A DNA stretch of 64,000 nt from a virus: IMG/VR virus record IMGVR_UViG_3300035670_000110, positions 24,609 through 88,608 of that record, one strand, 5' to 3'. Positions 7,247 through 61,862 of this stretch are shown here, in pieces. The notes beneath the pieces were generated by a model, which saw only the letters and a program-made list of their open reading frames with translations, searched no databases and was not told the origin of the DNA. Both the position numbers and the translations under genes were made by a program. How positions within the stretch are numbered: position 1 is the stretch's first letter; the number at the start of each line of letters is the position of its first letter.

Positions 7247-7383
7247 CTTCCAAATCCTCCAAATTTTTCAGGATATCTTAATGGCCATCTTTTACCACAT
7301 CTTAAGCAGTATAATTCTATATGAACATCTGAATTTAATGTTCTATCAACCATCACCTTGCCGCGACATTTTTTACAGTGCAT
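7192..7383 (-). CDS. Small zinc-ribbon protein
   Basis: CKKC...CLRCG. Confidence 0.7.
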   Translation of the reverse strand: MHCKKCRGKVMVDRTLNSDVHIELYCLRCGKRWPLRYPEKFGGFGRWIMKTETLYLTGKDMGF

Positions 7384-8583: not shown

Positions 8584-8588
8584 AATTA

Positions 8589-11737: not shown

Positions 11738-12687
11738 GACACTCCGTAGTTAAATCCTAAAGATAAAGAATATTCTATCGTTAAAGGGATGGACGCTGGC
11801 TTTCTGATAGGAGTCGGCAGGACTGCTCTAGATATTAGGCCATAGTTTGTATCTATAAAATAATTTCCTATATCAATTCTCATTGCATCTAATAATACCG
11901 GCTCCGAAGAATCGTGCCAAATTCTTACAAAATTAATGTCTGACCATTCGGGAAGTCCTGTAACTGTAGCAGCACCCTTTTCTGTGGAAGAAATAAAATA
12001 TCCAGATGCAGCAGGGGTAGTAAAAGCAATGTCATAATAACTATTTTCATCTTTCATAAATCTAAAAAATACATTAGATGAAGCCGTTGATTGATTATAT
12101 CCAGAAAGTATAAAATTATCCTGTGAGGTAAATGTTTCAATATACTGAAAGGCGCCGTCGGTTGACGAATACTGTAAATAATTATTTGCACTTGATGTTG
12201 GAGGTATATTAAATAATTGAGTTCCTATTCTGGCAAACTCTGTACTAATAAGTTCTGCTGCTGATGCTGATCCAAACTTAAGAAATAGGTCAACCCGGTC
12301 AAAGTCGAACAGCAATGATCCATTAAGACCGATCGTAGCATCTGATATTCTAGATGGATAAAGACCTACCTCTCTAATTTCTGATTGAAATGGGTCATCA
12401 ATTACTCCAGAATAAATCAATATATCATTATTATTTTCAAGATTTAAAGTTCCGCCGCGCACAACAGTTCTCCCTGATTCAAACTGCAGAGAGTTATTGG
12501 TAATCAGGGAGGTGGAGGCGGATAATGTATTTGGCTCATTACCTATTCCATAGGCTATACTGTTAGCAAAGTTAGGTATTATTCCAAGCAAAGATTTAAT
12601 AATAATGGAGCGTCCTGCGGTGGTAAGGGCATTCTGCTGCTCATAGATTAATTCATTGTCTAAATAAAATCTATAGATTCCTTTCAC
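11734..12687 (-). CDS. Minor tail/baseplate protein
   Basis: N.LTTAGR..I, GIG, IREVGLY and SRAVL..PI.K....LTIEY motifs typical of tail-collar/baseplate proteins. Confidence 0.7.
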   Translation of the reverse strand: MKGIYRFYLDNELIYEQQNALTTAGRSIIIKSLLGIIPNFANSIAYGIGNEPNTLSASTSLITNNSLQFESGRTVVRGGTLNLENNNDILIYSGVIDDPFQSEIREVGLYPSRISDATIGLNGSLLFDFDRVDLFLKFGSASAAELISTEFARIGTQLFNIPPTSSANNYLQYSSTDGAFQYIETFTSQDNFILSGYNQSTASSNVFFRFMKDENSYYDIAFTTPAASGYFISSTEKGAATVTGLPEWSDINFVRIWHDSSEPVLLDAMRIDIGNYFIDTNYGLISRAVLPTPIRKPASIPLTIEYSLSLGFNYGVS

Positions 12688-14255
12688 TGCTCAACCACCT
12701 CATATCTGGTGCCCAAGGAACTAGAGTCTTCAGTAACGCGGAAAATTCTCACACTAGTAATTATAGCATCGTTAACCTTTATGCTGAATGAATAGTATGG
12801 AGAGCCTCCAGCAGTATAATTTAATTCAAATGCTTCTAAATATTTTTCATAATCGAATTTTGAATTTGAGGGATCTCCATAATCAAGGACTTGAGATTGT
12901 ATTCTTGATACAAAATTTTGCACAATTTCATAAGCAGCCGTGTCAACGTAGGTGTCTGCGGAATTTGTTTGAGAAGGATCATAATACACTAAATCATCTG
13001 AATTAAATCTTTCATACGCTGGAACATAATTAATAGCATCATAGTCTATTCCTGCCTCCAAAAACTCTTTTGTATTTTTAATCAACGAAAGAGTTATTCT
13101 TTCAACCTCTCTTGTGATTCTTCTAGAAATGTTAGGCATAAAAATTCTTTCCGCATCTTTCGGATAAGTAATTTCAGCCCTTTCATTCATAGGGGGTATA
13201 TTTATTTCTGCTTTAGATGATCGTGTTGTTGGTACAAGATCTATAGCGTCAGACTCTTCATCGTATCGTGGAAGCCCCTCGTCCGACGGCTCTTCGATAT
13301 CAAAATCCAGAGATGATTCTTGGAGTGCTTGTATCTGAAGTTCTAAATCTGTAATTCTATCAAGAATTTTCTGTAAATCTTCTTGAGAAATTCCTGATGG
13401 CGTCCCCCCGCCAGGTGGGGGCGGAGGTGGAGGAGGTGGTGGTGGGGGAGGTGGAGGTGGGGTAGGTTCAGGGGGCGCACCTGGCTTGTAATCAAATGCG
13501 GCGTAAAGCGCTTTTTTTTCATCTGGAGTAATGTTACCATTGTCAACCGCTTCGACCAGTGCTTTTTGTTTCGGCACCTGCTTTTCGCCAAAGGCTTTTC
13601 TTCCACCCGATCCGGTGCCGACATTGGGCCATACATTTTTTATAACTGTTTTATCATAGTCTCCTAATACATTGTAATTATCTTTAAATGCACGCCATCT
13701 CTCGTCCTCTTCTTTTTGTCCCTGATTAGTTGGAGGGGGAGTGGTTGTTGACGGCGGCGGAGAGGGAGTCTTGGGCGGAGGAGGGGGCGTTGGCGTTGGG
13801 CCTTCCGTTGGGGGAGGAGTCTTAGGGGGAGGAGGGGTATTGGGTGGACGAGGGGTCGATGTTGGCCTGGGTCTACTTAAAAGATTTTGCATAATTTGCT
13901 TATTATTCTCTACAGTATCGGGGCTAGTGTTTTTAGAAACATTTTTATCCCTTGTAGTCGGAGCAGTTTCTGATTTATTACCTCTTTCAGGCTTAGTTTT
14001 GTCGGGCCGGATAGGGGGCAGGGGAACTGGCTTGTCGGGCCGGATAGGGGGCAGGGGAACTGGCTTGCCTGGTTCTGGCTTAAGTGGCCCTGGAGTAGGT
14101 TTGCCTGGTTCTGGCTTAAGTGGCCCTGGAGTAGGTTTGCCTGGTTCTGGCTTAAGTGGCCCTGGAGTAGGTTTAGATGGCTGCGGCTTAGAAGTACTAG
14201 GCTTAGGTGTTTGTGTTGTTTTTTTGGGTGGTGGTTTCGGGGGAATTTTAGCCAT
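12684..14255 (-). CDS. Proline-rich (extensin-like) tail-associated protein
   Basis: The N-terminal ~285 aa are dominated by Pro repeats, including a 16-Pro run; the C-terminus is globular and acidic; lies in the tail operon. Confidence 0.8.
   Translation of the reverse strand: MAKIPPKPPPKKTTQTPKPSTSKPQPSKPTPGPLKPEPGKPTPGPLKPEPGKPTPGPLKPEPGKPVPLPPIRPDKPVPLPPIRPDKTKPERGNKSETAPTTRDKNVSKNTSPDTVENNKQIMQNLLSRPRPTSTPRPPNTPPPPKTPPPTEGPTPTPPPPPKTPSPPPSTTTPPPTNQGQKEEDERWRAFKDNYNVLGDYDKTVIKNVWPNVGTGSGGRKAFGEKQVPKQKALVEAVDNGNITPDEKKALYAAFDYKPGAPPEPTPPPPPPPPPPPPPPPPGGGTPSGISQEDLQKILDRITDLELQIQALQESSLDFDIEEPSDEGLPRYDEESDAIDLVPTTRSSKAEINIPPMNERAEITYPKDAERIFMPNISRRITREVERITLSLIKNTKEFLEAGIDYDAINYVPAYERFNSDDLVYYDPSQTNSADTYVDTAAYEIVQNFVSRIQSQVLDYGDPSNSKFDYEKYLEAFELNYTAGGSPYYSFSIKVNDAIITSVRIFRVTEDSSSLGTRYEVVEQ
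13999..14172. repeat. Perfect coding tandem repeats: 2 x 33 bp followed by 3 x 36 bp
   Basis: ttgtcgggccggatagggggcaggggaactggc x2 (KPVPLPPIRPD) and ttgcctggttctggcttaagtggccctggagtaggt x3 (KPTPGPLKPEPG). Confidence 0.95.
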
Positions 14256-37771: not shown

Positions 37772-38620
37772 TTAAGGGTTATTTGTATCGAAAATGTTCA
37801 CAAAAGTAGTAACTTTTTGTACTGCGGGGGTATTTATAAACCCTAAATCTGTTTTTAAAAAGAATGTTGTTCCATATCTAGAGCCAAAAAGAATTCTTAC
37901 AAAATCTCCTACTGAACTACTAATTGGGATAAATTGTGATGATGCACTTAATTCATAAATTTGATTATCAGTTATTGATAAAACTTTATCCCCTTCAGTG
38001 ATATTAAATCCATCGATAAAAAGATCATCATTGATAAGGACAGATGCAGAAACATATTCTAAAAGACTCTCTTCGTTAGCGACACTAACATCGAAAAGGT
38101 ATCTGGACTGATTTTTAATCGGCTGATAAACTATACCACTGGATGCCGAAATAAAATTATCTTCTACATAGTCTATAACATTAATAGAAAATGACGCTGT
38201 ATCTGATACCACTAGTTTTGCTGTTCCAGCACCTGTAAACTCTTCATGTAAATATTGTGGATCTGAGTCCAACAAAGATGAATCCATAATATATAGATTT
38301 TGTATATTAAAATTTGCTCCAGAGTAGTCTCCAAAACGAATGTTAAACGAATCATTGCTGGAAGTTAATAATTTTTCGGGAAAGGTGAAGGTTAAATGAG
38401 ACCATTTACCTTGAGAAATAAAAGATCCTGATTGTCCGTTAACGTAACAATTTACGATACTATCGTCAAATACTAGTTGACCCGTATTATTATTAATACT
38501 GGCAGAAAACAGTAATTTTGAGTTAGAAGATGACGAAAATATATTTAAAAAATTATAAAAAGAATCTGTATCATCATTTAATCTAACAAAACAACCGACT
38601 GAACCAAGATATTTGATCAT
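37772..38620 (-). CDS. Virion structural protein with a ConA/LamG-like beta fragment
   Basis: YVNG.....GKWSHLTFTF LamG-like pattern; rich in SAS motifs. Confidence 0.55.
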   Translation of the reverse strand: MIKYLGSVGCFVRLNDDTDSFYNFLNIFSSSSNSKLLFSASINNNTGQLVFDDSIVNCYVNGQSGSFISQGKWSHLTFTFPEKLLTSSNDSFNIRFGDYSGANFNIQNLYIMDSSLLDSDPQYLHEEFTGAGTAKLVVSDTASFSINVIDYVEDNFISASSGIVYQPIKNQSRYLFDVSVANEESLLEYVSASVLINDDLFIDGFNITEGDKVLSITDNQIYELSASSQFIPISSSVGDFVRILFGSRYGTTFFLKTDLGFINTPAVQKVTTFVNIFDTNNP

Positions 38621-38637
38621 ATTGTTATTATATCCTA

Positions 38638-39387
38638 TTATATGTATCTTCCAGAAGAAAAATATTCTTCTATGTTAAATATAACATTTTTACATAATTC
38701 ATGATCAAGTTCTTCTATAATCTGATTTTTATATAAATATGCTTTATTAGAGAAACCAAATAAATTAATCAAAGACTCCAGATAATTTTTATAAACAAAC
38801 ATTACCTCACTGTTAGGATTTGCCTGAATTGGATCAAATTTATAAGAATCTGACTCTAAAAACATCAATGCGTTAGAAATATATTGTTTATAGCAAATGT
38901 CAAAGTCATACGCTAGTGGTCCGTCGATCAAAGAATTTTTCTCTGCGTACATATTAAAAGAATCTTTATGTGCTATCAAAGATCCGTCTAATGGCCATAC
39001 TTTATAGGACATATGGTAGTCGTAGTAAAAATTTTCTAATATTTCTTCTTTTATCATTGAATCTATAATTTTATTTATCTGACTTTCTTCTTTTATCATA
39101 TACATTTTATTTGATGGTTTTATAAAACATTTATGCTCTTTGCATAACTCTATAGATTGATGTAATGAAAACGGTGGAATTATAATATAATCTATTAAAA
39201 TTAATATTTCTTCATTTTTAATAGTTTCATTGATTAGTTTAATATAATTAATGTCTTTATCGAAATCGTAGGATGCTTTTTTTACATTAAACCCGATATC
39301 ATTATAATATTTTTTATAAAATAAAAATTTTTCTTCTTCATGAAAACCATCTACATAGGGTATATAAACATTATTTGTATACGACAT
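38638..39387 (-). CDS. Degenerate GT-A glycosyltransferase-like protein
   Basis: VYIPY N-terminal strand and ILILIDYIIIP...L.QSIELC resemble a GT2 core, but there is no clear DxD. Confidence 0.4.
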   Translation of the reverse strand: MSYTNNVYIPYVDGFHEEEKFLFYKKYYNDIGFNVKKASYDFDKDINYIKLINETIKNEEILILIDYIIIPPFSLHQSIELCKEHKCFIKPSNKMYMIKEESQINKIIDSMIKEEILENFYYDYHMSYKVWPLDGSLIAHKDSFNMYAEKNSLIDGPLAYDFDICYKQYISNALMFLESDSYKFDPIQANPNSEVMFVYKNYLESLINLFGFSNKAYLYKNQIIEELDHELCKNVIFNIEEYFSSGRYI

Positions 39388-40483
39388 TAAGATTTGGAAC
39401 CTCCCACCATGGTGATGTTTTTTTATCTACAATATTAATTCCAGAGTAAGATAAAAATCCTTGAATTGATCGTGGAAGATATCCAAAAACTTTTTCTTTA
39501 TTTTCTATTAGTTTCATATTTATTAAATCATCTGATAAACAAGAATTTATTTTATTTAAATTATAATCTACTGAGTTTTTTATATAATTGTTATAAAAAT
39601 ATAATTTTTCTTCAAAGGATGTGTAACCTTCTTCATGCTTTTCTTCATATTTTCTAGAATTTACAACATCATATAAATGAAAAAATAATTGTGTTTTAAT
39701 CCATACTAAATTATATCCTCTTGCATAAGAGAGGGCCGATTGATAAAATTCTTCTCCCCAGAATTTAATATCTTTATCTAAATTAATATTATATTTTGTT
39801 AGCCATGGATCTGCTTCTGTAAAATAAAAATGTGCAGCAATTTTTTTTGCTGGTAGGTACTCATTATCTATTATTTTATTTTCAAAGATTTTTATTGATT
39901 CTTTATTCATATCTTTATCGTTGGGAAAGGGAAAAACTGTAGAATTTACTAAATCATGAGATAATTTTTTATAAAAATCAAAGAACTGCCATCTATTGGC
40001 TACGTCTCTTTTAGATTTTATAGTTTTATCTCCATCGAAATATTCACCAACTTCTTCATTAATTTTATAAGAACTTAAATATGTAGTTATTACTCTTCTT
40101 TTACCAAAAATTTTTCTAGAATTTTCATACAGATCTATAAGTTGTTCATCCCATCCCTGTACAAAATCAGTATGCGAGTCTATTGATAAAAAATATTTTT
40201 CATTATTGTAATGTTTTGTTGGAGCAATCCTCCCCTGACCAACACCAGGGTATAAAAACCATGGTTGTATATCATATTTTACTTTTTTAAAATTATTATC
40301 CAAACCATTTTTTATATGATGAAAAAATGGTTTAGAGTTTTCTTTTATATCATTACTCTTCCAAAATATTGTGGTGCCTATAGAAATATCGTCTGGATTA
40401 GACGAATAGTCATATGCCCGCTCAACAGTTGAAAGATATTCATAATCATTCATTGTTGGGACGCACATAAATATTTTATTCAT
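39371..40483 (-). CDS. GT60 / Gnt1-like polypeptide GlcNAc transferase (intact DSH motif)
   Basis: IFMCVPTMND.EY..TV..AY.....PD.I.IG, GVGQGR, EKYFLSIDSHTDFVQGWDEQLI, ITTY, IAAHFYF, FWGEE, RGYNL, HLY. Start moved from 40534 to 40483. Confidence 0.8.
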   Translation of the reverse strand: MNKIFMCVPTMNDYEYLSTVERAYDYSSNPDDISIGTTIFWKSNDIKENSKPFFHHIKNGLDNNFKKVKYDIQPWFLYPGVGQGRIAPTKHYNNEKYFLSIDSHTDFVQGWDEQLIDLYENSRKIFGKRRVITTYLSSYKINEEVGEYFDGDKTIKSKRDVANRWQFFDFYKKLSHDLVNSTVFPFPNDKDMNKESIKIFENKIIDNEYLPAKKIAAHFYFTEADPWLTKYNINLDKDIKFWGEEFYQSALSYARGYNLVWIKTQLFFHLYDVVNSRKYEEKHEEGYTSFEEKLYFYNNYIKNSVDYNLNKINSCLSDDLINMKLIENKEKVFGYLPRSIQGFLSYSGINIVDKKTSPWWEVPNLNVVYK

Positions 40484-41189
40484 AATTTTTTTTGACCCAC
40501 ATATGCTTTCTATATCCTCCATAAAAATGATCAAAAACTCTTTTATGGATTTTCATTCTTTCTTTTTCTATATCTTCATATTTCCTGATCTCTGATTTCC
40601 AATTTTCTCTTTTAAAGAAAAACATTTGATATAAAGGGGTTCCTTTAGGAATAATCCCCTCAAATCCATTTTTTAATAGGAATGGAACACTGCCTCCAAT
40701 CCACCATCTATCAGTATCTATTATTCCATCGATTGTCCTAAATGGAAGATCATATTGATTTAATGGGTGGGTATAGTATGTAGACCATCCTCTTGGAGTT
40801 CTTGGTTCCCAGTGAGTGTACCAATTTAAATGATCATCTGGATTATAGTAATAATTTTTATCCTTTGGGATAATTCTATTAGGACCCCCTCTAGATAGAA
40901 TAATATTTTCTACTTGACTGGAAGCATTAATAGAAATTTTTCCATTGGTATCAAGCCTGACACTTATATCACACCAGGCCTCTTGTATATATCCTGTTGT
41001 AAATGTATCTAAAAGAGGCATACAATTTTTTTCAGTTGAATCTGCTCTCTCACAACTAATTGTTGGAGTATGTCCTCCAGCAAAGGGAGGTAAATTTTTA
41101 TACCATTCAGGAATATAGTTTTTTGCAGGCTTGGGTGGATCTATATAATCTGATGCGTATTGACTCTGGGGAATCCATTCAACTATCAT
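40476..41189 (-). CDS. Conserved phage protein, paralogue 3 of 3 (DUF6065/dUTPase-fold-like)
   Basis: PKPAKNYIPEWYK, KNCMPLLD, TPRGWSTYYTHP.N, GIIDTD, FEGIIPKGTP, FKRENW. Confidence 0.7.
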   Translation of the reverse strand: MIVEWIPQSQYASDYIDPPKPAKNYIPEWYKNLPPFAGGHTPTISCERADSTEKNCMPLLDTFTTGYIQEAWCDISVRLDTNGKISINASSQVENIILSRGGPNRIIPKDKNYYYNPDDHLNWYTHWEPRTPRGWSTYYTHPLNQYDLPFRTIDGIIDTDRWWIGGSVPFLLKNGFEGIIPKGTPLYQMFFFKRENWKSEIRKYEDIEKERMKIHKRVFDHFYGGYRKHMWVKKNYE

Positions 41190-41926
41190 GAGTAATCCTT
41201 TCTACTCCAACATTCTTTTTTATATCCAGAACTTGCGTGTCTTCTTACTTTAGCCTGCAAAACATTATATTCTTTTTCTTCCATAAATCTTTTATCACTA
41301 ACCCAATCTTCTCTCTTAAAAGGAATAATACTCATCATTGGAGTTCCCATTGGGATTATGCCTTCAAACCCCTTTTTAATAAAAAATGGATGGTTCCCTG
41401 TGACCCACCATTTATCCGTGTCCATCACTCCAGATAAGGTATAGAATGGTAATTCTGGCCTATTTATAGGATGTGTATATAAACAACTATACCCCTCTGG
41501 AGTATTTGCCTCCCATGCAGTTTGCCATACAAATTCAATTTGGTAATAATCTTCTGGTACGGGCATTGATAGATGATTAGAAGGACCTCTGCTACCGACT
41601 ATTGAAAAATAGTCATGACTTTTTACGCTAACACTACTTCCATCGAAATTTTTTTCCACAAATACATCGCACGGTAGTGTCATTATATATCCAATCGTCC
41701 AACTATCTAAAAATGGCATACAGTGCTTTAAAGTAGAGTTATGGTTTCCAGACCCCTCAACGAAATGTGGAGATTTCGTAAAGTGAGTTGGAATGTTTTT
41801 GTACCACTCTGGAAGCAATAATTTTGCAGGAACTGGTGCATCAGAAATATCAAAAATCGTTTCATTTCTTGCAACAAAAGATATATCGTTATATTCTTTT
41901 TTTACCTTTTTATTTCTCTTAAACAT
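41186..41926 (-). CDS. Conserved phage protein, paralogue 2 of 3 (DUF6065/dUTPase-fold-like)
   Basis: PVPAKLLLPEWYK, KHCMPFLD, TPEGYSCLYTHP.N, GVMDTD, FEGIIPMGTP, PFKREDW. Confidence 0.7.
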   Translation of the reverse strand: MFKRNKKVKKEYNDISFVARNETIFDISDAPVPAKLLLPEWYKNIPTHFTKSPHFVEGSGNHNSTLKHCMPFLDSWTIGYIMTLPCDVFVEKNFDGSSVSVKSHDYFSIVGSRGPSNHLSMPVPEDYYQIEFVWQTAWEANTPEGYSCLYTHPINRPELPFYTLSGVMDTDKWWVTGNHPFFIKKGFEGIIPMGTPMMSIIPFKREDWVSDKRFMEEKEYNVLQAKVRRHASSGYKKECWSRKDYS

Positions 41927-42621
41927 TATTTAAATTCCTTCCTGTTCCACCAGTTTAATTTATATCTATTAATGAATGTTCTATGATGAAAGTTTTTTAA
42001 TTTTTTATATTCTTTTTCTTTAAATTCTTTTTGATCTGATTTAAAAGAATCTCGTTTAAACGGTATTACTTGAACCATTGGTGTGTTATAAGGTATAACT
42101 CCAGTAAAATTATTATTTAAAAAAAATGGGAAGTTTATTGTTAATGGGAACTCATCTGTGTCAACGATACCCTCTATTATTTTAAATGGTAAATGATGTC
42201 CTATCGGAGTTATAAAAAGACAACTATAACCTTTTGGCGTTTCTATTTTCCATGGATTTGTCCATTTAAACGCTTCTTTTTTATAAAAAGATTGAATTGG
42301 ATAGTATGGTAACTGATCTATTGTATGACCTTCTACTGCAGGTATTCTAGGATCGGTGAGGCTCCATGTAACACTGTTTTCAGAAAAATGAACGTCCGTC
42401 CATGTTTTTATAATATATCCAGTAGACAGTGCGTCTAAAACGGGGATACATTTTTTTATTGTGGCGTTTGCATTTCCAGAAGAATAAGTTTTTTCACCAT
42501 CAACATAGGGGCTAGTTTTTTTATACCATTCTGGTAAATTCTTAATTGCTGGGCTAGGAAATTCTGCTACACCGTTTAAGTCACTCTCTGTTAATATAAA
42601 ATTTATTTTTTTATCTAACAT
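41926..42621 (-). CDS. Conserved phage protein, paralogue 1 of 3 (DUF6065/dUTPase-fold-like)
   Basis: PSPAIKNLPEWYK, KKCIPVLD, TPKGYSCLFITP, GIVDTD, FTGVIPYNTP, PFKRD. Confidence 0.7.
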   Translation of the reverse strand: MLDKKINFILTESDLNGVAEFPSPAIKNLPEWYKKTSPYVDGEKTYSSGNANATIKKCIPVLDALSTGYIIKTWTDVHFSENSVTWSLTDPRIPAVEGHTIDQLPYYPIQSFYKKEAFKWTNPWKIETPKGYSCLFITPIGHHLPFKIIEGIVDTDEFPLTINFPFFLNNNFTGVIPYNTPMVQVIPFKRDSFKSDQKEFKEKEYKKLKNFHHRTFINRYKLNWWNRKEFK

Positions 42622-43844
42622 TTTTTATTCCAATGTAAAGAATTTTCATAGGTTGAAAAATTGTATAACGATATAAAACTATTTACAGCATCTACAAAAG
42701 AGTTGCTGGAAAATATTGACCTAGGTTTAAATTTTAGTTTTTCCCAGTCTATAGATAATAAAATATTAAATTTTTCATCATCATAAACATTTTTTTCTAG
42801 CATTCTTTTTATTTCATTTATTCCTTCTGACTGTAAATAATCTTCTAGATTATATAAATCTGATGGACTTTTTTGATTTTCCCCGGAATATCTAATATCT
42901 TCGTATAATTGATAGACTGGTATGAATCTAAGCGTTATTACATTAAAATCATTAATTATAAAATTAATAAATGAATAAAAATTAAACTGACCTTCATCAA
43001 CTAGTGATTTTGGAAATGAATTATTTTTAATATAATTTTTTGCACTAGTGAAAATAAATTTATAAGATAGTCCAGTACTCAATGCAATATATTCATCTTT
43101 AATAAACTTTCTACTATTAAATCTGGGGAAATGAAATGTTTTTAAAAATTCATCATCTATTTTTACATTTTCTTTTTCTATTAAATACTGACTAATATCA
43201 GAACCGACTTCTTCTTGAGATTGATCAAAGTTTTTATTATTATCATTCACAAACTCTGTATATCCTGATACTGGTATCCTTGACCCATCATATTCTTCTC
43301 TTTGCATAGACATTTTTGTTTTATGGTTTGTAAAATATACAAAACCTTTAACAACATCATCATGCGGTAAATAATTCCTTGGCTCTGCTGTAATCACATT
43401 TTTTGGCCCCATGTTGTTTTCTATTTCTGTAAACTGTTTAATTAATATACTGTCCCAGTGTGGGTCGAACTCGCTTCTTGATGAAACGGACATATAATAA
43501 TCTTCTTTATTATATTTTGAATCGGCAATTTTTTTTAATTGTCCGAAAGTAAGTTTATTACTTAATTCTACTGTTTCTATATCCATGTTATTTTTATTAT
43601 TTTCATAGATATGCATAAGTTCAGTTGCTATATAATCGTAATTTAAATCATTATCAGAAAGTGCGATTGATATGAATATATTGTCTGGCCTTTTTGCATT
43701 TTTAAGAATAGAGTTAACTGTTCTTACAATATACGGATCTTTATAAGAAACTATAGATATAAAGATTGATTTTCTTGAATTTTTATAACCATTTGTATTA
43801 AAAATAGTTCCTTCATATGGCTCATATTTCATTGGTATATTCAT
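42615..43844 (-). CDS. GT60 / Gnt1-like protein, catalytic motif degenerate
   Basis: SIFISIVSYKDPY...TV.SIL.NAKRPDNIFI is the GT60 N-terminus, but EDYYMSVSSRSEFDPHWD replaces IDSH..F...WD. Confidence 0.7.
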   Translation of the reverse strand: MNIPMKYEPYEGTIFNTNGYKNSRKSIFISIVSYKDPYIVRTVNSILKNAKRPDNIFISIALSDNDLNYDYIATELMHIYENNKNNMDIETVELSNKLTFGQLKKIADSKYNKEDYYMSVSSRSEFDPHWDSILIKQFTEIENNMGPKNVITAEPRNYLPHDDVVKGFVYFTNHKTKMSMQREEYDGSRIPVSGYTEFVNDNNKNFDQSQEEVGSDISQYLIEKENVKIDDEFLKTFHFPRFNSRKFIKDEYIALSTGLSYKFIFTSAKNYIKNNSFPKSLVDEGQFNFYSFINFIINDFNVITLRFIPVYQLYEDIRYSGENQKSPSDLYNLEDYLQSEGINEIKRMLEKNVYDDEKFNILLSIDWEKLKFKPRSIFSSNSFVDAVNSFISLYNFSTYENSLHWNKKC

Positions 43845-43846
43845 AA

Positions 43847-44383
43847 TTATTTTATCTCACAATCTAAAAAGAACATGTGGTTTGGCTCAGCAAAGTGCAT
43901 GAATAACATTAAGACTTCATTGCCTTCGGTAAATTCTGGTCTTGAATGAAATTGATCTTCTCCGTAAAAACATAACGCCTGATTATTTTTAAGAATATAT
44001 TCTTTACCCTCTACAATAATCGGCCAAGGTTCTTTTGAAGACAAACAAATGTCAAAGGTATAGGTGCAGGCGTTTTGATCTTTATGATTTTCTAACCTAG
44101 AATTATATTGATTGTAATATGCTAAAAGAGAATATGTATGTAGAAGAGTGTCACTATCAAACTCTTTCCTAGCCCGATCCATATTCAGTAAGCCGATTCT
44201 ATCGCAACAATCATTTTCATTAACATATCTATTATGAAGTGGCTCAAAGTTCCAAAGATTTTTAGGAATAGAGTTTGCTATAGACATTATTTTAGAATAT
44301 TCTTTATCATTAAAGAACTTATCTATTATCCATGGATCTTTTATCTTTGCCAACGATTCACCGCCCAGGGAGGGCCAAACCAA
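43847..44383 (-). CDS. 2OG-Fe(II) oxygenase
   Basis: LENHKD (HxD), WPI, ALCFYGEDQFHSR (distal His), LFMHF. The true start may be slightly downstream of 44383. Confidence 0.8.
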   Translation of the reverse strand: MVWPSLGGESLAKIKDPWIIDKFFNDKEYSKIMSIANSIPKNLWNFEPLHNRYVNENDCCDRIGLLNMDRARKEFDSDTLLHTYSLLAYYNQYNSRLENHKDQNACTYTFDICLSSKEPWPIIVEGKEYILKNNQALCFYGEDQFHSRPEFTEGNEVLMLFMHFAEPNHMFFLDCEIK

Positions 44384-45012
44384 GTAACTATAGCATATTT
44401 ATATCCATCAAAAACTGGCCTAGCGGCATGTCTATAGGCATAATTAGATGGAAAAAGTGCTAATGCTGGAGAATCTGGGTTAACAGTATGGTTAAAATTA
44501 CTAAAATATGTTCCCCCACCCTCATATTCGCCAGGGTTTATATATATAAGTCCAGAAAGAACTCTATGCTCCACCCCAGGTCCATAATCTGTATGAACCT
44601 TGTACTGTCTTCCCGGTGAATATTTTAACACCTGCAACCCCTCATCAAATGCTATTTCTAGGTCATATTTAATACAATAATGTCTGACAAAAAGTGACAA
44701 TTGATCTTTAATAAACTGAACGGCACTATTTATTTGACATAAACATGGATTGTTGTGTATATCGTTATGCTCAAATATCGACATGGTAAGATTAGATCTT
44801 ACACTTCCACCATCATTACCGTCCCCGATTAACGCATTAGAATATTTAATGGGGCAACTGGGGTTATTATTTGCTTCTTCAAATGCTTCAATTAGTTTTT
44901 TAGAAATTTCTTCTGTAAAAATATTTTCATATAAATCTATAGCCCCTGATGATTCTGTCACCTTTATATTTTCAGGTAAAATAATTGTATTTTGAGTTTC
45001 TACTAAGCTCAT
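44341..45012 (-). CDS. Prolyl-4-hydroxylase-like 2OG-Fe(II) oxygenase
   Basis: VRS, QVLKY..G..YKVHTD, RVLSGLIYIN...YEGG.T.F, LFPSNYAYRHAARPV..GYKYAIVTW: complete HxD...H...K set. Confidence 0.88.
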   Translation of the reverse strand: MSLVETQNTIILPENIKVTESSGAIDLYENIFTEEISKKLIEAFEEANNNPSCPIKYSNALIGDGNDGGSVRSNLTMSIFEHNDIHNNPCLCQINSAVQFIKDQLSLFVRHYCIKYDLEIAFDEGLQVLKYSPGRQYKVHTDYGPGVEHRVLSGLIYINPGEYEGGGTYFSNFNHTVNPDSPALALFPSNYAYRHAARPVFDGYKYAIVTWFGPPWAVNRWQR

Positions 45013-45020
45013 TTTTTATC

Positions 45021-45695
45021 CTATCTTAAATAGGAGAACAGTAAATTTGAATTCTCCTCCAGACCATTTTCTTCGGCAAGAAAATCTTTTCCCCCGTTGA
45101 AAAATGTTGTAAGTGCTACTTTTCTACCCCTTATTATAGTATTATGTTTTTTAGAAAACAAATAATTCGCAGGATAGAATAATATAGTTCCTCTAGTCCA
45201 ATCAACATACTTTAAATTATTTAAATATTCCCACTCTATAACCCCGCCAGAATAATCATCATCTATTAAAATTTCTACAGCAACCTGTCTGCTAAAGGGG
45301 GTGTTATTTATATTACCTTCTTCATCCTGGAATGATTTATTAGGATTATAAATAAAAGATTTCTCACCAGACAGTTCTATGTCAATAAATATATTTTCTT
45401 GCCACTGAATACTGTGGATAGTTTCTTCATAAATATCGCAATATTTAGCAAAGTAATACATTATACCTTTTTGTATATTTTCCGCTGTTTCTTTTTTATT
45501 AATTTTGTCTAATCCATAAAAAAAGGTATTTTTGACTTTATCTATTAAATAATATTCTGGGTATTTATTAATATGATTATGAACAGAAACGATATCCTCA
45601 ATGTCATTTATTGATATATCATAAACATTATTATATGCAACAACTCCTGGATATAAAATAGTTTCTTTACTATCCCGTGAAAAAGAATTTATCAT
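45021..45695 (-). CDS. P4H-like 2OG oxygenase paralogue lacking metal ligands
   Basis: RQVAVEILIDDDYSGG.IEW, GTILFYPANYLF and GRKVALTTFF align by eye with its neighbour, but HxD is absent and the distal His position is not conserved. Confidence 0.65.
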   Translation of the reverse strand: MINSFSRDSKETILYPGVVAYNNVYDISINDIEDIVSVHNHINKYPEYYLIDKVKNTFFYGLDKINKKETAENIQKGIMYYFAKYCDIYEETIHSIQWQENIFIDIELSGEKSFIYNPNKSFQDEEGNINNTPFSRQVAVEILIDDDYSGGVIEWEYLNNLKYVDWTRGTILFYPANYLFSKKHNTIIRGRKVALTTFFNGGKDFLAEENGLEENSNLLFSYLR

Positions 45696-46185
45696 CAGCA
45701 GAGTTATCTTCCTTGTATTGTTTATAAATAATTATTCTATCTGTAAACAATATTTTATCTTCTTTATTATTTACAGCAGAAACTATTGTAAATTCATATT
45801 CTCCAAATTTATCTATTGATAAATCTATTTCATAAAAAACTTTATTTATTTTATTCATTTTTTTAGATAAAATAAAATTTTTATTTTTTAAATTATTTTC
45901 ATCTAACTGATAAAGATTTATTGTTAACTCATCATAACCGCTATTGATAGCAAACTCATCAATAAATCTTATTTTAAAATCTTCTGACTCATGAAACACT
46001 AAGAAATCATTATCCAGCATTCTGTATTCTGGTATATTAATTTCCTGAACTGAATCTATATTTTTTATTAGCCCAGAAACTATATCTGACTCCCCATGAA
46101 TAATTTGATGAAAATTATTATGAACGGCAAAATTAATATGTTCATCTAGATCCTCATTTTCTGGAATATAAAGATATCTTAACAT
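45670..46185 (-). CDS. Hypothetical protein (first gene of the modification island)
   Basis: 171-aa AT-rich ORF; the C-terminal half looks like a small beta sandwich (GEYEFTI). Confidence 0.6.
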   Translation of the reverse strand: MLRYLYIPENEDLDEHINFAVHNNFHQIIHGESDIVSGLIKNIDSVQEINIPEYRMLDNDFLVFHESEDFKIRFIDEFAINSGYDELTINLYQLDENNLKNKNFILSKKMNKINKVFYEIDLSIDKFGEYEFTIVSAVNNKEDKILFTDRIIIYKQYKEDNSADDKFFFTG

Positions 46186-46189
46186 TTTA

Positions 46190-46855
46190 TTATACTACAA
46201 ATTGTAGAATTCTCCCATCTTCATATCCAGATACATCAAAATCTATGCCGCTTGGCTTTTCCCTAGAAGAACAATAAATTATAGCACCGCCGCCTGTAGT
46301 ATAAAAAGATCCATTATTAAATCCAGATGCATAAATTGTTCCGTTACCGCTGACTCTCCTTGCCGAAACTATTACAATTCCGCCGCCAGGATTAGTTCCA
46401 TCGCCAGCGCCTCCGGTAACACCCAAAGCAGATTGCTGAGATGCATTTAATATGTATCCATCAACTGCCAGGTTTGGATCATAAAAATATGATGCACTTC
46501 CAAAAGAAGAATCAATTTCTATAGAAGAATAACTGGCACTATCCCCTCCTAAACTATTAGAAACTGATGCTGTCCCGCCGCCAAATATTGAACCTGCCTG
46601 AGACGATCCATTAATTAAACCAACACTTGTATTTGGATCTTGACTAGATGAACCTAGAAAAATCATATTATTTCTTACAAAGATTTTATATCCATTAGTA
46701 TCTATATGTATTCCATTATTTATTTTTAAATTATTCCAATACATATCTCTTGTTAATGAAAAATTTGCCGATGCGGTAAAATTACCGTCTTTTCCAGATC
46801 CATATATAGGGTCTGGAAAAACTCTATCGTCTGATGCATAACTTTTAATTGGCAT
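46190..46855 (-). CDS. Glycine-rich virion protein, short paralogue of 46845..48551
   Basis: YGSGKDGN, LTRDMYWNNL, DTNGYKIFV and GGGIVIVSAR are shared with the neighbour. Confidence 0.72.
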   Translation of the reverse strand: MPIKSYASDDRVFPDPIYGSGKDGNFTASANFSLTRDMYWNNLKINNGIHIDTNGYKIFVRNNMIFLGSSSQDPNTSVGLINGSSQAGSIFGGGTASVSNSLGGDSASYSSIEIDSSFGSASYFYDPNLAVDGYILNASQQSALGVTGGAGDGTNPGGGIVIVSARRVSGNGTIYASGFNNGSFYTTGGGAIIYCSSREKPSGIDFDVSGYEDGRILQFVV

Positions 46856-48551
46856 TATCTATGGCCTCATTCTTAATAATTATTACAGTGCCAGAGGTTG
46901 GTGTTCCAGCATCACCAGTGCCCGCAGCGGCTCGAACCTCTATACTATCTGGAATATTTGACTCTGTTACAACAAGAACAACCCCTCCGCCGCCAGAATA
47001 TCCGTTAAGACCTGGAGAACCTGGAAGACCGGCGCTACCTATTCCTCCTGCACCACCCAACCCACCAGCGCCACCGGCACCTCCTGCAAAATATTCAGCC
47101 GGTTGTATGGAAAACTGATCTGGTTCAAACTCGGTGTTATAGGCGTAAGAAGTATTTCCTGGAACTATTGTATTATATACAGTGTATGAATTTCCAGGTT
47201 GAAAATAATATCCAAATGCTGGAAAATATGCAATATATGCATAGATATTTCCAGCAGTATAGAATGTATTTCCTATTACCTCATAAGATGGTCCGGGGGT
47301 GTAATATACCGTTCCTGGGTTATATCCAAGAAAAGTAAGGAAAAATTGATTTCCCGGAACTGTAAAGGCAGTTCCGGGGTTTTCGTTACTGGGCCTCCAT
47401 CTGACAGATGCTGGACCAGGAGTACGAGGATTAAATGTTGGTCTGTTATATGCAGTTGTTGGACGGTTGTATGCAGGAGTATTGTATATATATGCTGTTG
47501 GACTATTGTATAGAGTTACTCTATTGTAAGAATAAAATGGTCTATTATATGATAAAACTGGACTATTATATGCAAAAGTTCCTTGTGATCCTATAAAATT
47601 ATATCCTGGCTGTGTTGGAGAATTATAAAGAGTAGCCGCATTTCCTCCAGTTGTTGGATTAGTAAAAGAATATTCAACTGAATAATTATATCCTGGAGTT
47701 GAAACGTATAAATATGATGCGCTGTAGAAATCTGGTGCAGGCTCCCCAGGACTTCCTGGGGAGCCTGGTGGACCTGGAAAACCTGGACCTCCTATTCCAC
47801 CAGGATTTCCTGGAGAACCAGATTCTCCATCTGCTCTAATAATTCCAGAGCCAATGATATTTCTTGCTGAAATTATTACGACTCCACCGCCTGCACCACC
47901 GTCTCCTCCTAATCCTCCAGATCCACCTAGCCCAGCAAACCCTGGAGATCCAGCAGATCCTGGAAACCCTGAAGACCCCATGCCACCGGATGCACCAACG
48001 GTATATTCAAATCCCGGCCTAGATCCAGGTGATCCTGGACTTCCCGGACTACCTAATTCCCCTGCAGTAAATGATCCAGACTGTCCCGCAGATCCACTTT
48101 CCCCTATAGCACCGCCAGATCCACCCATAAGAAATCTAAGAGTTCCTTCTACCGCATCAAACTTATAGCCAGCGATTGCTTGAGAGAAATTATAAAATTC
48201 TGCTTCTCCAAAAAAGTTTTCTCCTGGGTTTAAGCCTCCGTCGCCTCCAAGAGTATCGGACGCTTTAATTCCTGATGGAGCGCCACCTAAAATACTTCCC
48301 GCAGAAGTTTTGTCTGACAATCTTCCAATAACAGCAGAAGAATCAGCCATATTTAGGGTATCTTTAACGAAAACCCTATAACCATTTGTATCAAGTTGGG
48401 CGGAACCTAGCACAGTTAGATTGTTGTAATACATGTCTCTGTTAAGTACAACCGTTCCAGTAATAATTACATTTCCGTCAGTCCCTGGGCCATATACCGC
48501 CAACCCTCCGCGACCATTAAAGTTAGTAGGAACAATATCTTGTATCGACAT
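46845..48551 (-). CDS. Glycine-rich fibre/adhesin with Gly-X-X tracts and a YNxP-repeat insertion
   Basis: Same core as 46190..46855 plus GSPGSPGSPG / GFPGPPGSPGSPGEP tracts and a Tyr/Asn/Pro-rich insert. Confidence 0.75.
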   Translation of the reverse strand: MSIQDIVPTNFNGRGGLAVYGPGTDGNVIITGTVVLNRDMYYNNLTVLGSAQLDTNGYRVFVKDTLNMADSSAVIGRLSDKTSAGSILGGAPSGIKASDTLGGDGGLNPGENFFGEAEFYNFSQAIAGYKFDAVEGTLRFLMGGSGGAIGESGSAGQSGSFTAGELGSPGSPGSPGSRPGFEYTVGASGGMGSSGFPGSAGSPGFAGLGGSGGLGGDGGAGGGVVIISARNIIGSGIIRADGESGSPGNPGGIGGPGFPGPPGSPGSPGEPAPDFYSASYLYVSTPGYNYSVEYSFTNPTTGGNAATLYNSPTQPGYNFIGSQGTFAYNSPVLSYNRPFYSYNRVTLYNSPTAYIYNTPAYNRPTTAYNRPTFNPRTPGPASVRWRPSNENPGTAFTVPGNQFFLTFLGYNPGTVYYTPGPSYEVIGNTFYTAGNIYAYIAYFPAFGYYFQPGNSYTVYNTIVPGNTSYAYNTEFEPDQFSIQPAEYFAGGAGGAGGLGGAGGIGSAGLPGSPGLNGYSGGGGVVLVVTESNIPDSIEVRAAAGTGDAGTPTSGTVIIIKNEAIDNAN

Positions 48552-48886
48552 TAAGAAACCTCTACTCCTGAAATATGAATATTTAAGGATGCTGAAGCAC
48601 TTGCGAACCCATGAATAGAAGATCCTGTTGGAAGAACACTTTTAATTTCAATGCTAAGAGTGTTATTTGCTGATACTAATATTTCCGGGAAAATTTTATT
48701 TGAATTTGAGGGTGATCCTGCATTTGGAACAAAATATAATGTAGCATCTAAATCTGCTCCAGTTGTATTTGAAATTAATATTTGCTTTATTATAGATGTT
48801 GTGGAGGCAGGAACGACATATAATGCACTTGCTGTACCTGGAAGATCCCTGGCAGCAACCAGTTCCTTTAAATCAAAAACGGACAT
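48551..48886 (-). CDS. Small virion beta-sandwich protein
   Basis: LYVVPASTTSIIKQILISN...NIHISGVEV pattern common in phage fibre clusters; GGAGGAGG SD. Confidence 0.68.
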   Translation of the reverse strand: MSVFDLKELVAARDLPGTASALYVVPASTTSIIKQILISNTTGADLDATLYFVPNAGSPSNSNKIFPEILVSANNTLSIEIKSVLPTGSSIHGFASASASLNIHISGVEVS

Positions 48887-48926
48887 TTAAACCTCCTCCA
48901 CTTTATTATAGATTATATCATTCATG

Positions 48927-50756: not shown

Positions 50757-50784
50757 GGTTCCCTATCCCCTCGTCCTTTTTAAA

Positions 50785-52458: not shown

Positions 52459-52499
52459 AGTGAAACCTCACAAGTATTGGATTTAATTAAATTATAGCA

Positions 52500-52976
52500 T
52501 TATATCTTTATTATTATCTTATACAATTTAACAGTCACACTGGTTACATCACCGTCTGGAACTGTTACTGTAAGGACGAGATTAGCCCCTGAAATATCGG
52601 CGGCGAGTGTGTATGAAATAGATCCGCCTAACTCTATTTTTCCATATTCAGAGATTCCTGCATTTGTATCATCATGAATTATCATACATTTTACTGAAGT
52701 ATATTTAGTTCCCTGATTCATTTGAATTATATATTCAGCAGATCTGTATGAAGATGCTGGAAAAGAATCAAGAATTGTAGATAAATTACTGCTAACGTTA
52801 ATTGTGGATGAACTGTTTATTACCTGGCCAAAATTTACACCAGAAAATTCTGGCTGATCAGTAGTTTTAACACCCTGATCTAAATAAGAGTCATGGGTTG
52901 TTAAGGTAGACCTAATATTATTGTGGTCTTCTAAGTGTCCTGAATTTCCATGTGATCTAATTGGAGGGATGGCCAT
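52500..52976 (-). CDS. Short fibre/adaptor protein sharing the C-terminal domain of 50785..52458
   Basis: GHLEDHN N-terminus; LDSF...YRSAEYIIQ..QGTKY......IHD......SEYG. Confidence 0.7.
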   Translation of the reverse strand: MAIPPIRSHGNSGHLEDHNNIRSTLTTHDSYLDQGVKTTDQPEFSGVNFGQVINSSSTINVSSNLSTILDSFPASSYRSAEYIIQMNQGTKYTSVKCMIIHDDTNAGISEYGKIELGGSISYTLAADISGANLVLTVTVPDGDVTSVTVKLYKIIIKI

Positions 52977-52991
52977 AAAATTTATTATACA

Positions 52992-58194: not shown

Positions 58195-58311
58195 ATATAT
58201 CCACTCCGTTATATAAATATAATTGGCTACCATCTCTAGATGGTAACCTTAATAATTCTACTACTACTTTCCTTCAAAGTATATGATTTTTATGTGTGAT
58301 ATTATATCGAC

Positions 58312-60917: not shown

Positions 60918-61862
60918 GTGTCTAGTATCTATGTAGCCATACCAAGTATAAAAGACAGTGAACTGGTAAAAACCATCATTAGGTGCTTAAACAAATCTAG
61001 CAAACTTAATGAAATTAACATAGGGGTGGCTGTCTTTTTATTTGAAGAAGAGTTGAACGACCCACTGTTTGATCTACCATATAAAAATGTAAAAATAAAG
61101 AATTTTGATAGAAACTATTATAAAGGTGTTGGAATAGCCAGAAAAGAATCAATGTCTTTTTATAACGGAGAAGACTACATATTAATGATTGATTCTCATT
61201 GCGAGTTTAAAGAAAACTGGGATTTAATTCTTATAGATAAATTAAAATATCTAAAGGATAAAAAGGGGTTAATAACCTGTTATCCTCCAGAATACAAATA
61301 TATTTACAAAAACTTTACAAATTTAAAAAATGATTGGAAAAATATTTATGTATCTAATTTTGTTGAAGGATATATAAAACAAAAATTTGATCACGAACCT
61401 GATTGTATAGCGTGTAATGAATTTTCACCTGTTCCTTTGTGGGAAGAAAAAAGAATAGAGAATAAAGATAATGATTTTATTTTAAATAAAAAAATATCGG
61501 CTGGAATGTTGTTTGCCGATAAAAGATTTGCAGAAGAATACGAAATAATGATTCCATACAATTACTCATTCTTTGAAGAAGAACTTATTATGTCCATAGA
61601 GGCATTAAATCTTGGATGGACATTTTACGCCCCCACTGATTACGTTCCAATAGCACATCTATATGCAGAAGACATTAATGAGTTTGGTGGAGATAGGTCT
61701 GCTCTAAAAGAGTGTGAAGTGGTAGAACTAAACACTAAACAAAACTATCTAAGTTATGTCCTTGATCCTAATAATAAAGATAAGATTATAAGATTTGAGA
61801 AACATGCTGGAATAGATATACTTAATCGTGCTGAATTCGAAAAGCGAAAAGTCGAAAAATAG
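60918..61862 (+). CDS. GT60 / Gnt1-like GlcNAc transferase, third copy (intact DSH)
   Basis: SIYVAIPSIKD.EL.KTI, GVGIAR, GEDYILMIDSHCEF.ENWD..LI, ITCYPP, ISAGMLF, FFEEE, IAHLY. Confidence 0.82.
   Translation: MSSIYVAIPSIKDSELVKTIIRCLNKSSKLNEINIGVAVFLFEEELNDPLFDLPYKNVKIKNFDRNYYKGVGIARKESMSFYNGEDYILMIDSHCEFKENWDLILIDKLKYLKDKKGLITCYPPEYKYIYKNFTNLKNDWKNIYVSNFVEGYIKQKFDHEPDCIACNEFSPVPLWEEKRIENKDNDFILNKKISAGMLFADKRFAEEYEIMIPYNYSFFEEELIMSIEALNLGWTFYAPTDYVPIAHLYAEDINEFGGDRSALKECEVVELNTKQNYLSYVLDPNNKDKIIRFEKHAGIDILNRAEFEKRKVEK

Follow-up and report, generated by a model that had tools for sequence, protein, structure and literature searches.

Viruses that glycosylate their own particles are established among the chloroviruses and mimivirus and have been reported for a few mycobacteriophages. 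Collagen modification is known from mimivirus, and in the Skp1 pathway of Dictyostelium and Toxoplasma the prolyl 4-hydroxylase (P4H) PhyA acts first and is followed by Gnt1, a glycosyltransferase (GT) of CAZy family GT60. In chlorovirus PBCV-1, according to a chlorovirus review, GMD and GMER feed fucose and rhamnose into the capsid glycans, and in Mycobacterium phages capsid and tail-tube subunits are reported to carry glycans (Freeman et al. 2023). Here we compare these systems with a block of ten genes, g1 to g10, that occupies positions 38638-46185 of the minus strand of a 64-kb stretch of phage DNA. This stretch, hereafter the window, takes up the final 64 kb of a linear IMG/VR record of 88,608 bp (IMGVR_UViG_3300035670_000110; CheckV completeness 72%), and all positions refer to the window unless the record is named.

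The original prediction for this block was that the phage uses a hydroxylase and GT60 enzymes to hydroxylate and then glycosylate its own virion proteins. In our analysis the block reads as a cytoplasmic protein-tailoring cassette of the late operon, whose likeliest target is the set of adjacent repeat-bearing, probably virion-surface proteins; we regard this as evenly poised between being right and being wrong. A virion protein is the favoured target because the linkage of the cassette to two neighbouring proteins, of 221 and 568 amino acids, and to fibre genes is conserved. In the literature searchable here we found nothing on GT60 enzymes, DUF6065 or a pairing of P4H and collagen-like proteins in tailed phages, and a hydroxylate-then-glycosylate system in such phages is not described there.

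A ten-gene block in the late operon

The block consists of the following genes.

38638..39387, minus strand: g1, 249 amino acids, 26-45% identity in loci L001-L006
39371..40534, minus strand: g2, 370 amino acids from a likely ATG at 40483, GT60 protein with DSH and WGEE motifs
40476..41189, minus strand: g3, 237 amino acids, paralogue of g5 (phrog_7084, 3e-35)
41186..41926, minus strand: g4, 246 amino acids, paralogue of g5 (phrog_7084, 3e-41)
41926..42621, minus strand: g5, 231 amino acids, predicted dUTPase/dCTP-deaminase-fold protein related to DUF6065 (phrog_7084, 2e-46)
42615..43844, minus strand: g6, 409 amino acids, GT60-like GT-A protein in which SSR replaces the DxH metal motif
43847..44383, minus strand: g7, about 168-178 amino acids, small putative oxygenase (the second of the block), H-x-D...H pattern invariant
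44341..45012, minus strand: g8, 223 amino acids, 2-oxoglutarate (2OG)-Fe(II) oxygenase resembling collagen-type P4Hs, H-x-D...H...K intact
45021..45695, minus strand: g9, 224 amino acids, degenerate g8 paralogue that has lost the HxD iron ligands
45670..46185, minus strand: g10, 171 amino acids, conserved in loci L002, L004, L006 and L011

As had been noticed from the letters, these ten minus-strand open reading frames (ORFs) form a tightly coupled run between the fibre cluster and the portal; at each junction the neighbours either overlap or are separated by no more than 17 nt (with the g2 start set at 40483), and the block shares its direction with the portal and capsid genes. It is also AT-rich, with a per-gene GC of 0.23-0.35, although GC at third codon positions (0.16-0.28) equals that of most other genes of the genome (0.17-0.29). 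The AT-richness is therefore due to proteins rich in K, N, I, Y and F and is not a signal of foreign DNA, and we rejected horizontal acquisition as an inference from it. None of the ten products contains a transmembrane-like segment (highest KD19 score 1.55).

A megablast comparison of 38000-47000 with phage records returned no close DNA relative. Between 37000 and 49000 neither promoter-like sites (73, against 66.0 +/- 8.8 in shuffles) nor terminator-like sites (11, against 5.8 +/- 2.8) were clearly above the shuffled background. The NCBIfam search of the block proteins gave sub-threshold matches only.

A P4H-like oxygenase and its companions

The g8 product matches PF13640 at 46.7 bits (cut-off 27), and its residues H140, D142, H195 and K205 are invariant in 10/10 sequences, which upholds the predicted P4H-like oxygenase at this position. 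A profile built from ten orthologues (A5) was searched against the PDB and found 25 matches at E<=1. The best is the P4H of Bacillus anthracis (8.8e-15); the second-best distinct solved relative is 5c5t (5.5e-9), which we take to be the P4H of chlorovirus PBCV-1. These are followed by the Chlamydomonas P4H (1e-6) and human collagen P4H alpha-2 (2.5e-5), by P3H1 and PiuC-type hydroxylases and, weakly, by the mimivirus and human collagen lysyl hydroxylase-glycosyltransferases (0.005-0.012). Enzymes of the PHD type are more remote, with E-values of 0.26 for a HIF prolyl hydroxylase and 0.13 for the Pseudomonas PHD-like 4iw3. The expectation of a Skp1-like hydroxylase thus gives way to a collagen-type one (8.8e-15 against 0.26). 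In agreement with the prediction, no TET/JBP or AlkB chain appears among the 25 matches, and the block oxygenases match no TET/JBP or AlkB family in Pfam. By its profile g8 is a relative of the collagen-type prolyl 4-hydroxylases, with peptidyl-proline hydroxylation as its putative activity.

The neighbouring g9 aligns with g8 in hhalign (E 4.5e-5 over 88 columns), and in an alignment of five orthologues neither an HxD motif nor the distal His is conserved; g9 is probably a pseudo-enzyme. A second HxD..H oxygenase had been proposed for g7. The pattern stands, H90, D92 and H136 being invariant in 6/6 sequences, whereas the oxygenase fold finds no backing from Pfam or from a search of the PDB with the g7 profile, and hhalign relates g7 neither to g8 nor to g9. 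The g7 family matches only phrog_2954 (8e-11) and phrog_3531 (2e-3), both mislabelled 'ferrochelatase'. Because phrog_3531 also matches g8, over a different part of its profile, fusions of g7-like and g8-like parts are suggested to exist in some phages.

Glycosyltransferases of the GT60 type

Three GT60 proteins had been reported for the window, two in the block and one elsewhere. The latter is confirmed, and is listed here with the gene that directly follows it.

60918..61862, plus strand: third GT60, 314 amino acids, PF11397 92.9 bits (cut-off 21), DSH kept
61895-62578, plus strand: ThyX-type thymidylate synthase, phrog_85 1e-61, RH.S..S-like signature

Both block proteins belong to the family as well, with PF11397 scores of 67.4 bits for g2 and 56 bits for g6 (cut-off 21), and they are related to each other by hhalign (E 4e-10). 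A DxH metal-binding motif defines the retaining GT-A enzymes of GT27 and GT60. In a motif alignment of 22 proteins (g6 and 21 relatives) D-[SA]-H and a downstream WGEE-like motif are present in g2, the third GT60 and most relatives, whereas SSR, SPS or GSD takes the place of DxH in g6 and its orthologues (6/6 sequences). The pairing of two GT60/Gnt1-like enzymes in the block therefore holds for family membership and fails for the metal motif of g6, and judging from these motifs g2 is likely the single catalytically plausible GT of the block. For gene g1, which had been taken for a degenerate GT-A protein, that assignment finds no support: it has no Pfam, PHROG or NCBIfam match, no PDB match by profile and no hhalign match to g2 or g6.

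An AlphaFold2 (AF2) model of g2 (pLDDT 81) places it nearest to polypeptide-type O-glycosyltransferases, with the sugar and the acceptor putative. In VIA its match to polypeptide GalNAc-T1 has Z 19.8 (root-mean-square deviation, rmsd, 3.6 over 276 residues) and that to the Toxoplasma enzyme TgGalNAc-T3 Z 18.7; the generic GT-A background starts at Z 15.1 and TarP follows at 14.1. The best Foldseek E is 2.4e-8, and the top 39 rows listed are all polypeptide GalNAc-transferases. Solved GT60 chains are absent from both structure lists. LH3/ColGalT1 is a further fold neighbour of the model. The predicted GT60 rather than DNA-modifying character of these GTs is thus supported by both PF11397 and the model.

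A tblastn search of phage records with g2 found only two GTs of Xanthomonas jumbo phages (23-26% identity), a GT profile (A2) searched against the PDB gave no useful match, and a single-sequence scan found no close relatives of the third GT60. The ThyX neighbour of the third GT60 was considered as a clue to DNA modification and rejected, as it is not conserved: among the 80 GT60-seeded loci described below, ThyX lies near the GT60 in 0/80 and a ribonucleotide reductase (RNR) in 5/80.

Linkage to repeat-bearing and fibre genes

The following genes, two of them just upstream of the block, bear on the candidate substrates.

46190..46855, minus strand: 221-amino-acid protein directly upstream of the block, short paralogue of the 568-amino-acid protein that lacks its repeat inserts
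46845..48551, minus strand: 568-amino-acid fibre-like protein, weak tail-fibre PHROG match (phrog_5073, 2e-4)
12684..14255, minus strand: 523-amino-acid tail-region protein, Pro-rich in its N-terminal half, 18.7% Pro overall, with a run of 17 Pro

The 568-amino-acid protein has the same Gly-rich N- and C-terminal scaffold as the 221-amino-acid protein (about 33% identity between the N-terminal parts), and its inserts combine Gly-X-Y tracts holding 17 G.P triplets with seven YN.P repeats. It is the prime candidate substrate, and the 523-amino-acid protein is a second candidate substrate for the P4H. The 221-amino-acid family has 43 members, is lineage-restricted and has no Pfam match, and its sequence gave no useful match in the PDB.

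Synteny over all ten genes is kept in L002, L004 and L006, and also over the part of the block that the L005 contig covers; the block proteins of these four viral contigs are 26-77% identical to those of the window, against 83-89% for the portal. Among more distant contigs, L011 keeps the set with two dUTPase-fold genes, and in the reduced form of L012, L013 and L023 the 221-amino-acid protein is accompanied by a P4H, two dUTPase-fold genes and a GT60 that retains DxH. A homologue of the 221-amino-acid protein lies directly upstream of the cassette in 7/7 loci that show that side (L002, L004, L006, L011, L012, L013 and L023). Homologues of the 568-amino-acid protein lie just upstream of it in L002, L004, L006, L011 and L012, with a partial copy in L013; in L011-L013 their repeats differ and again combine Asn and Pro.

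Two independent censuses of IMG/VR extend this picture. Census 1 started from the dUTPase-fold profile, which has at least 578 relatives there, and census 2 from a GT60 profile, which has at least 565; in each, 80 loci were kept. With such numbers the cassette is common. Fibre-like clusters lie within 5 kb in 69/80 loci of census 1, and their representatives match PHROGs of the tail-fibre or virion-structural kind as well as the Phage Tail Collar domain. A GT-A gene is present in 19 of these 80 loci and a P4H-like gene in eight; the four with members of the 221/568-amino-acid family all have both a GT60 and a P4H. The commonest adjacent genes encode a small protein, c3 (22/80), and a fibre-like protein, c1 (18/80).

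In census 2, half of the loci (40/80) have one to three dUTPase-fold genes, which in 37/40 share the strand of the GT60, in 37/40 lie less than 1 kb from it and in 19 less than 100 bp. P4H-like genes occur in 13/80 loci, 12 of which have dUTPase-fold genes too. The order that recurs outside the close relatives of the window is a fibre C-terminal domain, a repeat-insert protein of 343-367 amino acids, two dUTPase-fold genes, the GT60, with or without a PF01555 gene, and a further dUTPase-fold gene. The repeat-insert protein stands just upstream of the enzymes in 27/80 loci of census 2 (L057, L107, L111, L112 and others). What stays constant is thus a core of GT60 and dUTPase-fold proteins preceded by a repeat-insert protein, to which a P4H, a methylase or additional GTs may be added. 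A pathway that is simply 'P4H then Gnt1', as originally envisaged, does not match this composition, the dUTPase-fold trio being the most constant partner of the GT60.

Some further features of these loci were noted. The 343-367-amino-acid protein, which has no Pfam or PHROG match, is composed of lectin-like N- and C-terminal parts split by a hypervariable low-complexity insert of Cys, Asn, Ser, Thr and Pro; its repeats are C-N-x-S/T-C, RNPSTCNQ or SPSYPC, with many N-x-S/T triplets. The PF01555 gene (N6/N4 DNA methylase family) is flanked by the GT60 on one side and another dUTPase-fold gene on the other in L134-L137, L151-L153 and others. A small Cys-rich protein of the CxxCxxCC type (cluster 25 of census 1) adjoins P4H-like genes, on the opposite strand, in L012, L023, L030, L031 and L061.

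These neighbourhoods also bear on where the modified molecule ends up. The cassette could instead tailor a non-virion protein or glycan, such as a cytoplasmic protein of the host (the kind of target that Skp1 is for PhyA and Gnt1), a cell-wall polymer or a non-structural phage protein, which would serve superinfection exclusion or the takeover of the host. Fibre modules commonly have accessory genes at their ends, and many GT60s of census 2 lie in auxiliary neighbourhoods that lack fibre genes, e.g. DenV-GT60-...-GT4-GT47. In the phage itself the third GT60 is outside the late operon and the GDP-sugar genes are far from the block, and the chlorovirus review notes that no hydroxyproline (Hyp) was found in PBCV-1 particles. 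Set against this are the position of the cassette within the late structural operon, the 221/568-amino-acid repeat proteins that adjoin it in every locus where that side can be seen, and repeat-insert proteins that precede the enzymes in independent lineages as well. A membrane-anchored component is also missing from the cassette. On balance we judge a non-virion target unlikely.

A trio with a predicted dUTPase fold

The three paralogues g3, g4 and g5 had been described as being of unknown function. Their paralogy is borne out by phrog_7084 and by 28-35% identity across the three groups in an alignment of 15 sequences (A1), and a fold can now be predicted for them. The AF2 model of g5 made from these sequences has a pLDDT of 68.6. 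All its top Foldseek rows are trimeric dUTPases, with E from 1.4e-3, and in VIA, a search independent of Foldseek, the top 22 rows all belong to the dUTPase/dCTP-deaminase fold class (Z 10.4-6.6, rmsd 3.0-5.7, 96-128 residues aligned), the next unrelated fold having Z <=4.2. The model therefore predicts a dUTPase/dCTP-deaminase fold for g3-g5. Profile searches do not reach it: the Pfam dUTPase model PF00692 returns no match from the genome at E<=10, and the A1 profile finds no dUTPase chain in the PDB at E<=10. A homotrimer prediction for g5 (three copies, A1) gave a score of 0.02 and a mark of 0.42, which bears neither way.

Sequence relatives link the trio to a Pfam family. The DUF6065 model PF19541 matches neither the proteins at E<=1 nor the genome at E<=10; it is, however, carried by 4/120 listed relatives found with the A1 profile (E 1e-67 to 1e-72) and by 12-21% of the members of the nearest Atlas clusters. 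By this sequence route g3-g5 are homologous to DUF6065 proteins and lie outside the reach of the PF19541 model.

Across the paralogues 37 columns are invariant, among them C58, D63, D76, T128, S133, D154-T155-D156 and K189-R190, and a G-x-x-D-T-D motif is invariant in 15/15 sequences of the alignment. By their conservation the invariant polar residues read like an active site. By eye, the segments K.C.P..D, TP.G.S, G..DTD and FKR follow each other in this order and a Gly-rich tail like motif V is missing; we take the order to resemble dUTPase motifs I-IV, with G-x-x-D-T-D presumably the counterpart of motif III. In length the trio proteins exceed dUTPases by about 100 residues.

The family has 6153 relatives in the protein database at E<=1e-3. 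In a scan of 185,579 species genomes it turned up at only 16 loci, most of which lie on short contigs of metagenome-assembled genomes, and it is thus nearly exclusive to viruses. Its proteins always stand alone, save for one longer relative that has no Pfam domain. Single phrog_7084 genes are found in 50-52 records of cultured viruses, almost all of them haloarchaeal myoviruses and one to three of them cyanophages. In Halorubrum phage HF2 (L007) and Cyanophage S-RIM4 (L008) the lone homologue stands beside RNR genes, and in HF2 it is also at the edge of the baseplate/fibre module.

A nucleotide-enzyme fold raises the question of whether the cassette acts on nucleotides or phage DNA rather than on protein: the trio would reshape the pyrimidine pools, the oxygenase would hydroxylate a base and the GT would glycosylate it, as with base J or in 5hmC/5hoC phages. 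Besides the predicted fold and the invariant G-x-x-D-T-D motif, whose likeness to dUTPase motif III is presumed, this would fit the RNR genes beside the HF2 and S-RIM4 homologues, the ThyX gene beside the third GT60 and the PF01555 methylase found inside the module in 14/80 loci of census 2. The family-level picture is different, with ThyX and RNR near few or none of the GT60s (0/80 and 5/80), the trio family almost confined to viruses and located among fibre genes in 69/80 loci, and the genome empty of PF00692 matches.

The individual enzymes point the same way. According to a preprint, GT-A enzymes that glycosylate DNA exist in phages, have TarP as a solved neighbour and carry the motifs R...DDD...EDY/F; DNA-glycosylating phage GTs are also the subject of PMC13326640. 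The g2 protein has DxH...WGEE in place of those motifs, and its model is nearer to polypeptide GalNAc-transferases (Z 19.8) than to TarP (14.1). As for the oxygenase step, g8 is of the P4H type with no TET/JBP or AlkB chain at E<=1, and the record (72% complete) holds no Tet_JBP or ThyA-type homologue. Modification of nucleotides or DNA seems to us highly improbable.

The trio might also be no enzymes at all, and instead serve the structure or assembly of the fibres as trimeric knobs or chaperones, perhaps themselves glycosylated acceptors. Most loci have them at the 3' ends of their fibre genes, next to c3 in 22/80 and c1 in 18/80; their copy number varies from one to three as fibre genes do; they are, with the one longer relative, always separate proteins; and the g5 VIA list includes human cytomegalovirus (HCMV) pp71 and TLP20, two non-enzymatic viral proteins of the same fold. 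The 37 columns that stay invariant at 28-35% identity, many of them polar, are the pattern of an active site and speak for catalysis instead, and a place for these proteins in virions is hypothetical. We hold a purely structural trio to be very unlikely.

Neighbouring genes and genome context

The remaining genes of interest are given below, those of the window in order of transcription. Nearly all window genes are on the minus strand.

56260-58233: class II ribonucleotide reductase, first in transcription order, ahead of the fibre-like genes
46190-56249: six fibre-like or structural genes with tail-fibre, baseplate-connector and virion-structural PHROG matches
38638-46185, minus strand: the ten-gene block, after the fibre-like genes
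Between the block and the portal: genes for proteins of 282 and 108 amino acids
35860-37485: portal, 51% identity to portals of ~133-kb Streptomyces phages
Downstream of the portal: a protease-scaffold gene, then the capsid protein (phrog_1623)
Last in the order: a 3092-amino-acid ORF, taken as the tape measure, and distal tail genes
Record 1-13809, before the window (loci L009 and L010): a DegT/EryC1 aminotransferase, an fcl-like epimerase/reductase and, where the contig ends, a GT10 fragment
Record 1-13809, before the window: GDP-mannose 4,6-dehydratase (gmd; PF16363, 1e-151)
Record 1-13809, before the window: GMP reductase/IMPDH-like, GT4-like and NodU/CmcH-type carbamoyltransferase genes

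The large terminase is located in the part of the record that precedes the window. The sugar-nucleotide and glycan genes found there could extend or decorate a glycan.

Within the block, g10 has no Pfam, PHROG or NCBIfam match and no hhalign relation to g9. Its Atlas model (pTM 0.52) has weak structural neighbours, and the protein is possibly a small beta-sandwich, an assignment of low confidence. The Ser/Thr-rich 282-amino-acid protein (37772-38620, minus strand) between the cassette and the portal has no family match, is as AT-rich as the cassette and is 50-56% identical in all related contigs; it may belong with the block.

The phage is siphovirus-like. WhiB is a hallmark of actinobacteriophages, and a WhiB-family gene (50.9 bits, above the Pfam cut-off) lies before the window at record 8086-8262 on the minus strand. 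On account of this gene, the kinship of the portal and relatives in lake metagenomes, this uncultured lake phage probably has an actinobacterial host of low G+C. The genome G+C of ~0.3-0.45 would fit a low-GC freshwater actinobacterial host.

DISCUSSION

How the cassette might work can be put as a sequence of steps. The P4H-like g8, perhaps helped by g7, would hydroxylate prolines within the repeat inserts that the fibre-like products of the adjoining upstream genes carry, at the YN.P and Gly-X-Pro tracts of the 568-amino-acid protein and possibly in the poly-Pro tail protein. The retaining, polypeptide-type GT60 g2 would next add N-acetylhexosamine (HexNAc) to Hyp or to Ser/Thr, with the degenerate copies g6 and g9 acting as non-catalytic partners. 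A third activity, which probably needs a nucleotide or nucleotide sugar and travels with the GT60 in many phages, would come from the dUTPase-fold trio, and the phage's own GDP-sugar genes could supply further sugars. What the analysis establishes are the family and fold assignments, the catalytic motifs kept or lost and the conservation of gene linkage. The protein target, the protein in question, the Hyp acceptor, the N-acetylglucosamine (GlcNAc) sugar and the role of the trio are what we infer from the evidence above. The preference for protein over DNA, which the original prediction shared, draws on the conserved linkage to repeat-bearing and fibre genes and on the polypeptide type of the GT, while the target itself belongs to the inferred part.

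Several observations weigh against this scheme. Any modification, its expression and the presence of the 221/568-amino-acid proteins in the virion are presumed, and the fibre neighbourhood is also a cargo site of phages, where being linked to fibres does not prove that they are the target. Few prolines occur in the collagen-like tract of the L012 homologue, and Gly-X-Pro therefore cannot be the conserved target. Both g6 and g9 are without catalytic residues, and the third GT60 stands outside the late operon, beside ThyX. The dUTPase fold suggests nucleotide chemistry, as do the RNR genes next to the HF2 and S-RIM4 homologues. Half of the census 2 loci have no dUTPase-fold gene, many have neither these nor fibre genes, 13 have the GT60 beside a pyrimidine-dimer glycosylase and 14/80 have the PF01555 DNA methylase inside the module. 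Finally, an unpublished amino-acid analysis cited in the reference list of the chlorovirus review found no Hyp in PBCV-1 particles.

A bolder extension of the protein-tailoring scheme concerns the trio itself. Its members could be new protein-modifying enzymes, dependent on nucleotides or nucleotide sugars, that together with the GT60 (and optionally a P4H, a methylase and further GTs) build a composite post-translational modification (PTM) on the hypervariable Asn/Pro/Cys-rich repeat inserts of fibres. We rate this as doubtful. If true, aquatic phages would have a widespread and unrecognised means of tuning or shielding their receptor-binding surfaces.

If fibres are decorated by the cassette, this would affect host recognition and resistance to proteases or defence systems, change how fibre hypervariability in environmental phages is interpreted, and provide a first function for a large virus-specific family with a nucleotide-enzyme fold. 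What this window adds is the expansion of the cassette to ten genes, degenerate copies of its enzymes included, in a siphovirus-like actinophage. Its candidate substrates are clear and directly testable, namely the YN.P/Gly-X-Pro repeats and the run of 17 prolines.

Comparison with known systems

The Skp1 pathway resembles the block in that a P4H-type 2OG-Fe(II) enzyme and a PF11397/GT60 enzyme are encoded together here and are, in both cases, soluble and cytoplasmic. It differs in three respects: g8 groups with the collagen-type P4Hs and not with PHD/PhyA (8.8e-15 against 0.26), the place of Skp1 is taken by repeat tracts in phage proteins as candidate targets, and the cassette is enlarged by three dUTPase-fold proteins and by degenerate copies of its enzymes. 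The Hyp-GlcNAc chemistry of that pathway would accordingly serve here as an analogy only.

PBCV-1 shares with this phage a gmd gene, an epimerase/reductase and a P4H. The phage differs in infecting bacteria, in having a GT of the GT60 type and in clustering its enzymes beside the putative substrate. As a precedent the chlorovirus P4H cuts both ways.

Mimivirus L230 and animal LH3 follow the same logic of hydroxylating and then glycosylating collagen-like repeats, in the viral case those of its own fibre proteins. They act on lysine and are fused, bifunctional enzymes, whereas the phage genes are separate and the similarity is distant.

In the virion glycosylation of mycobacteriophages we know of no hydroxylase and no dUTPase-fold partner. 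The likeness to the block is that actinophage-encoded GTs are reported close to structural genes.

With the trimeric dUTPase/dCTP deaminase superfamily the trio has the predicted fold of g5 in common. Unlike the members of that superfamily, g3-g5 are some 100 residues longer, belong to a virus-bound family and are linked to GT60 and fibre genes.

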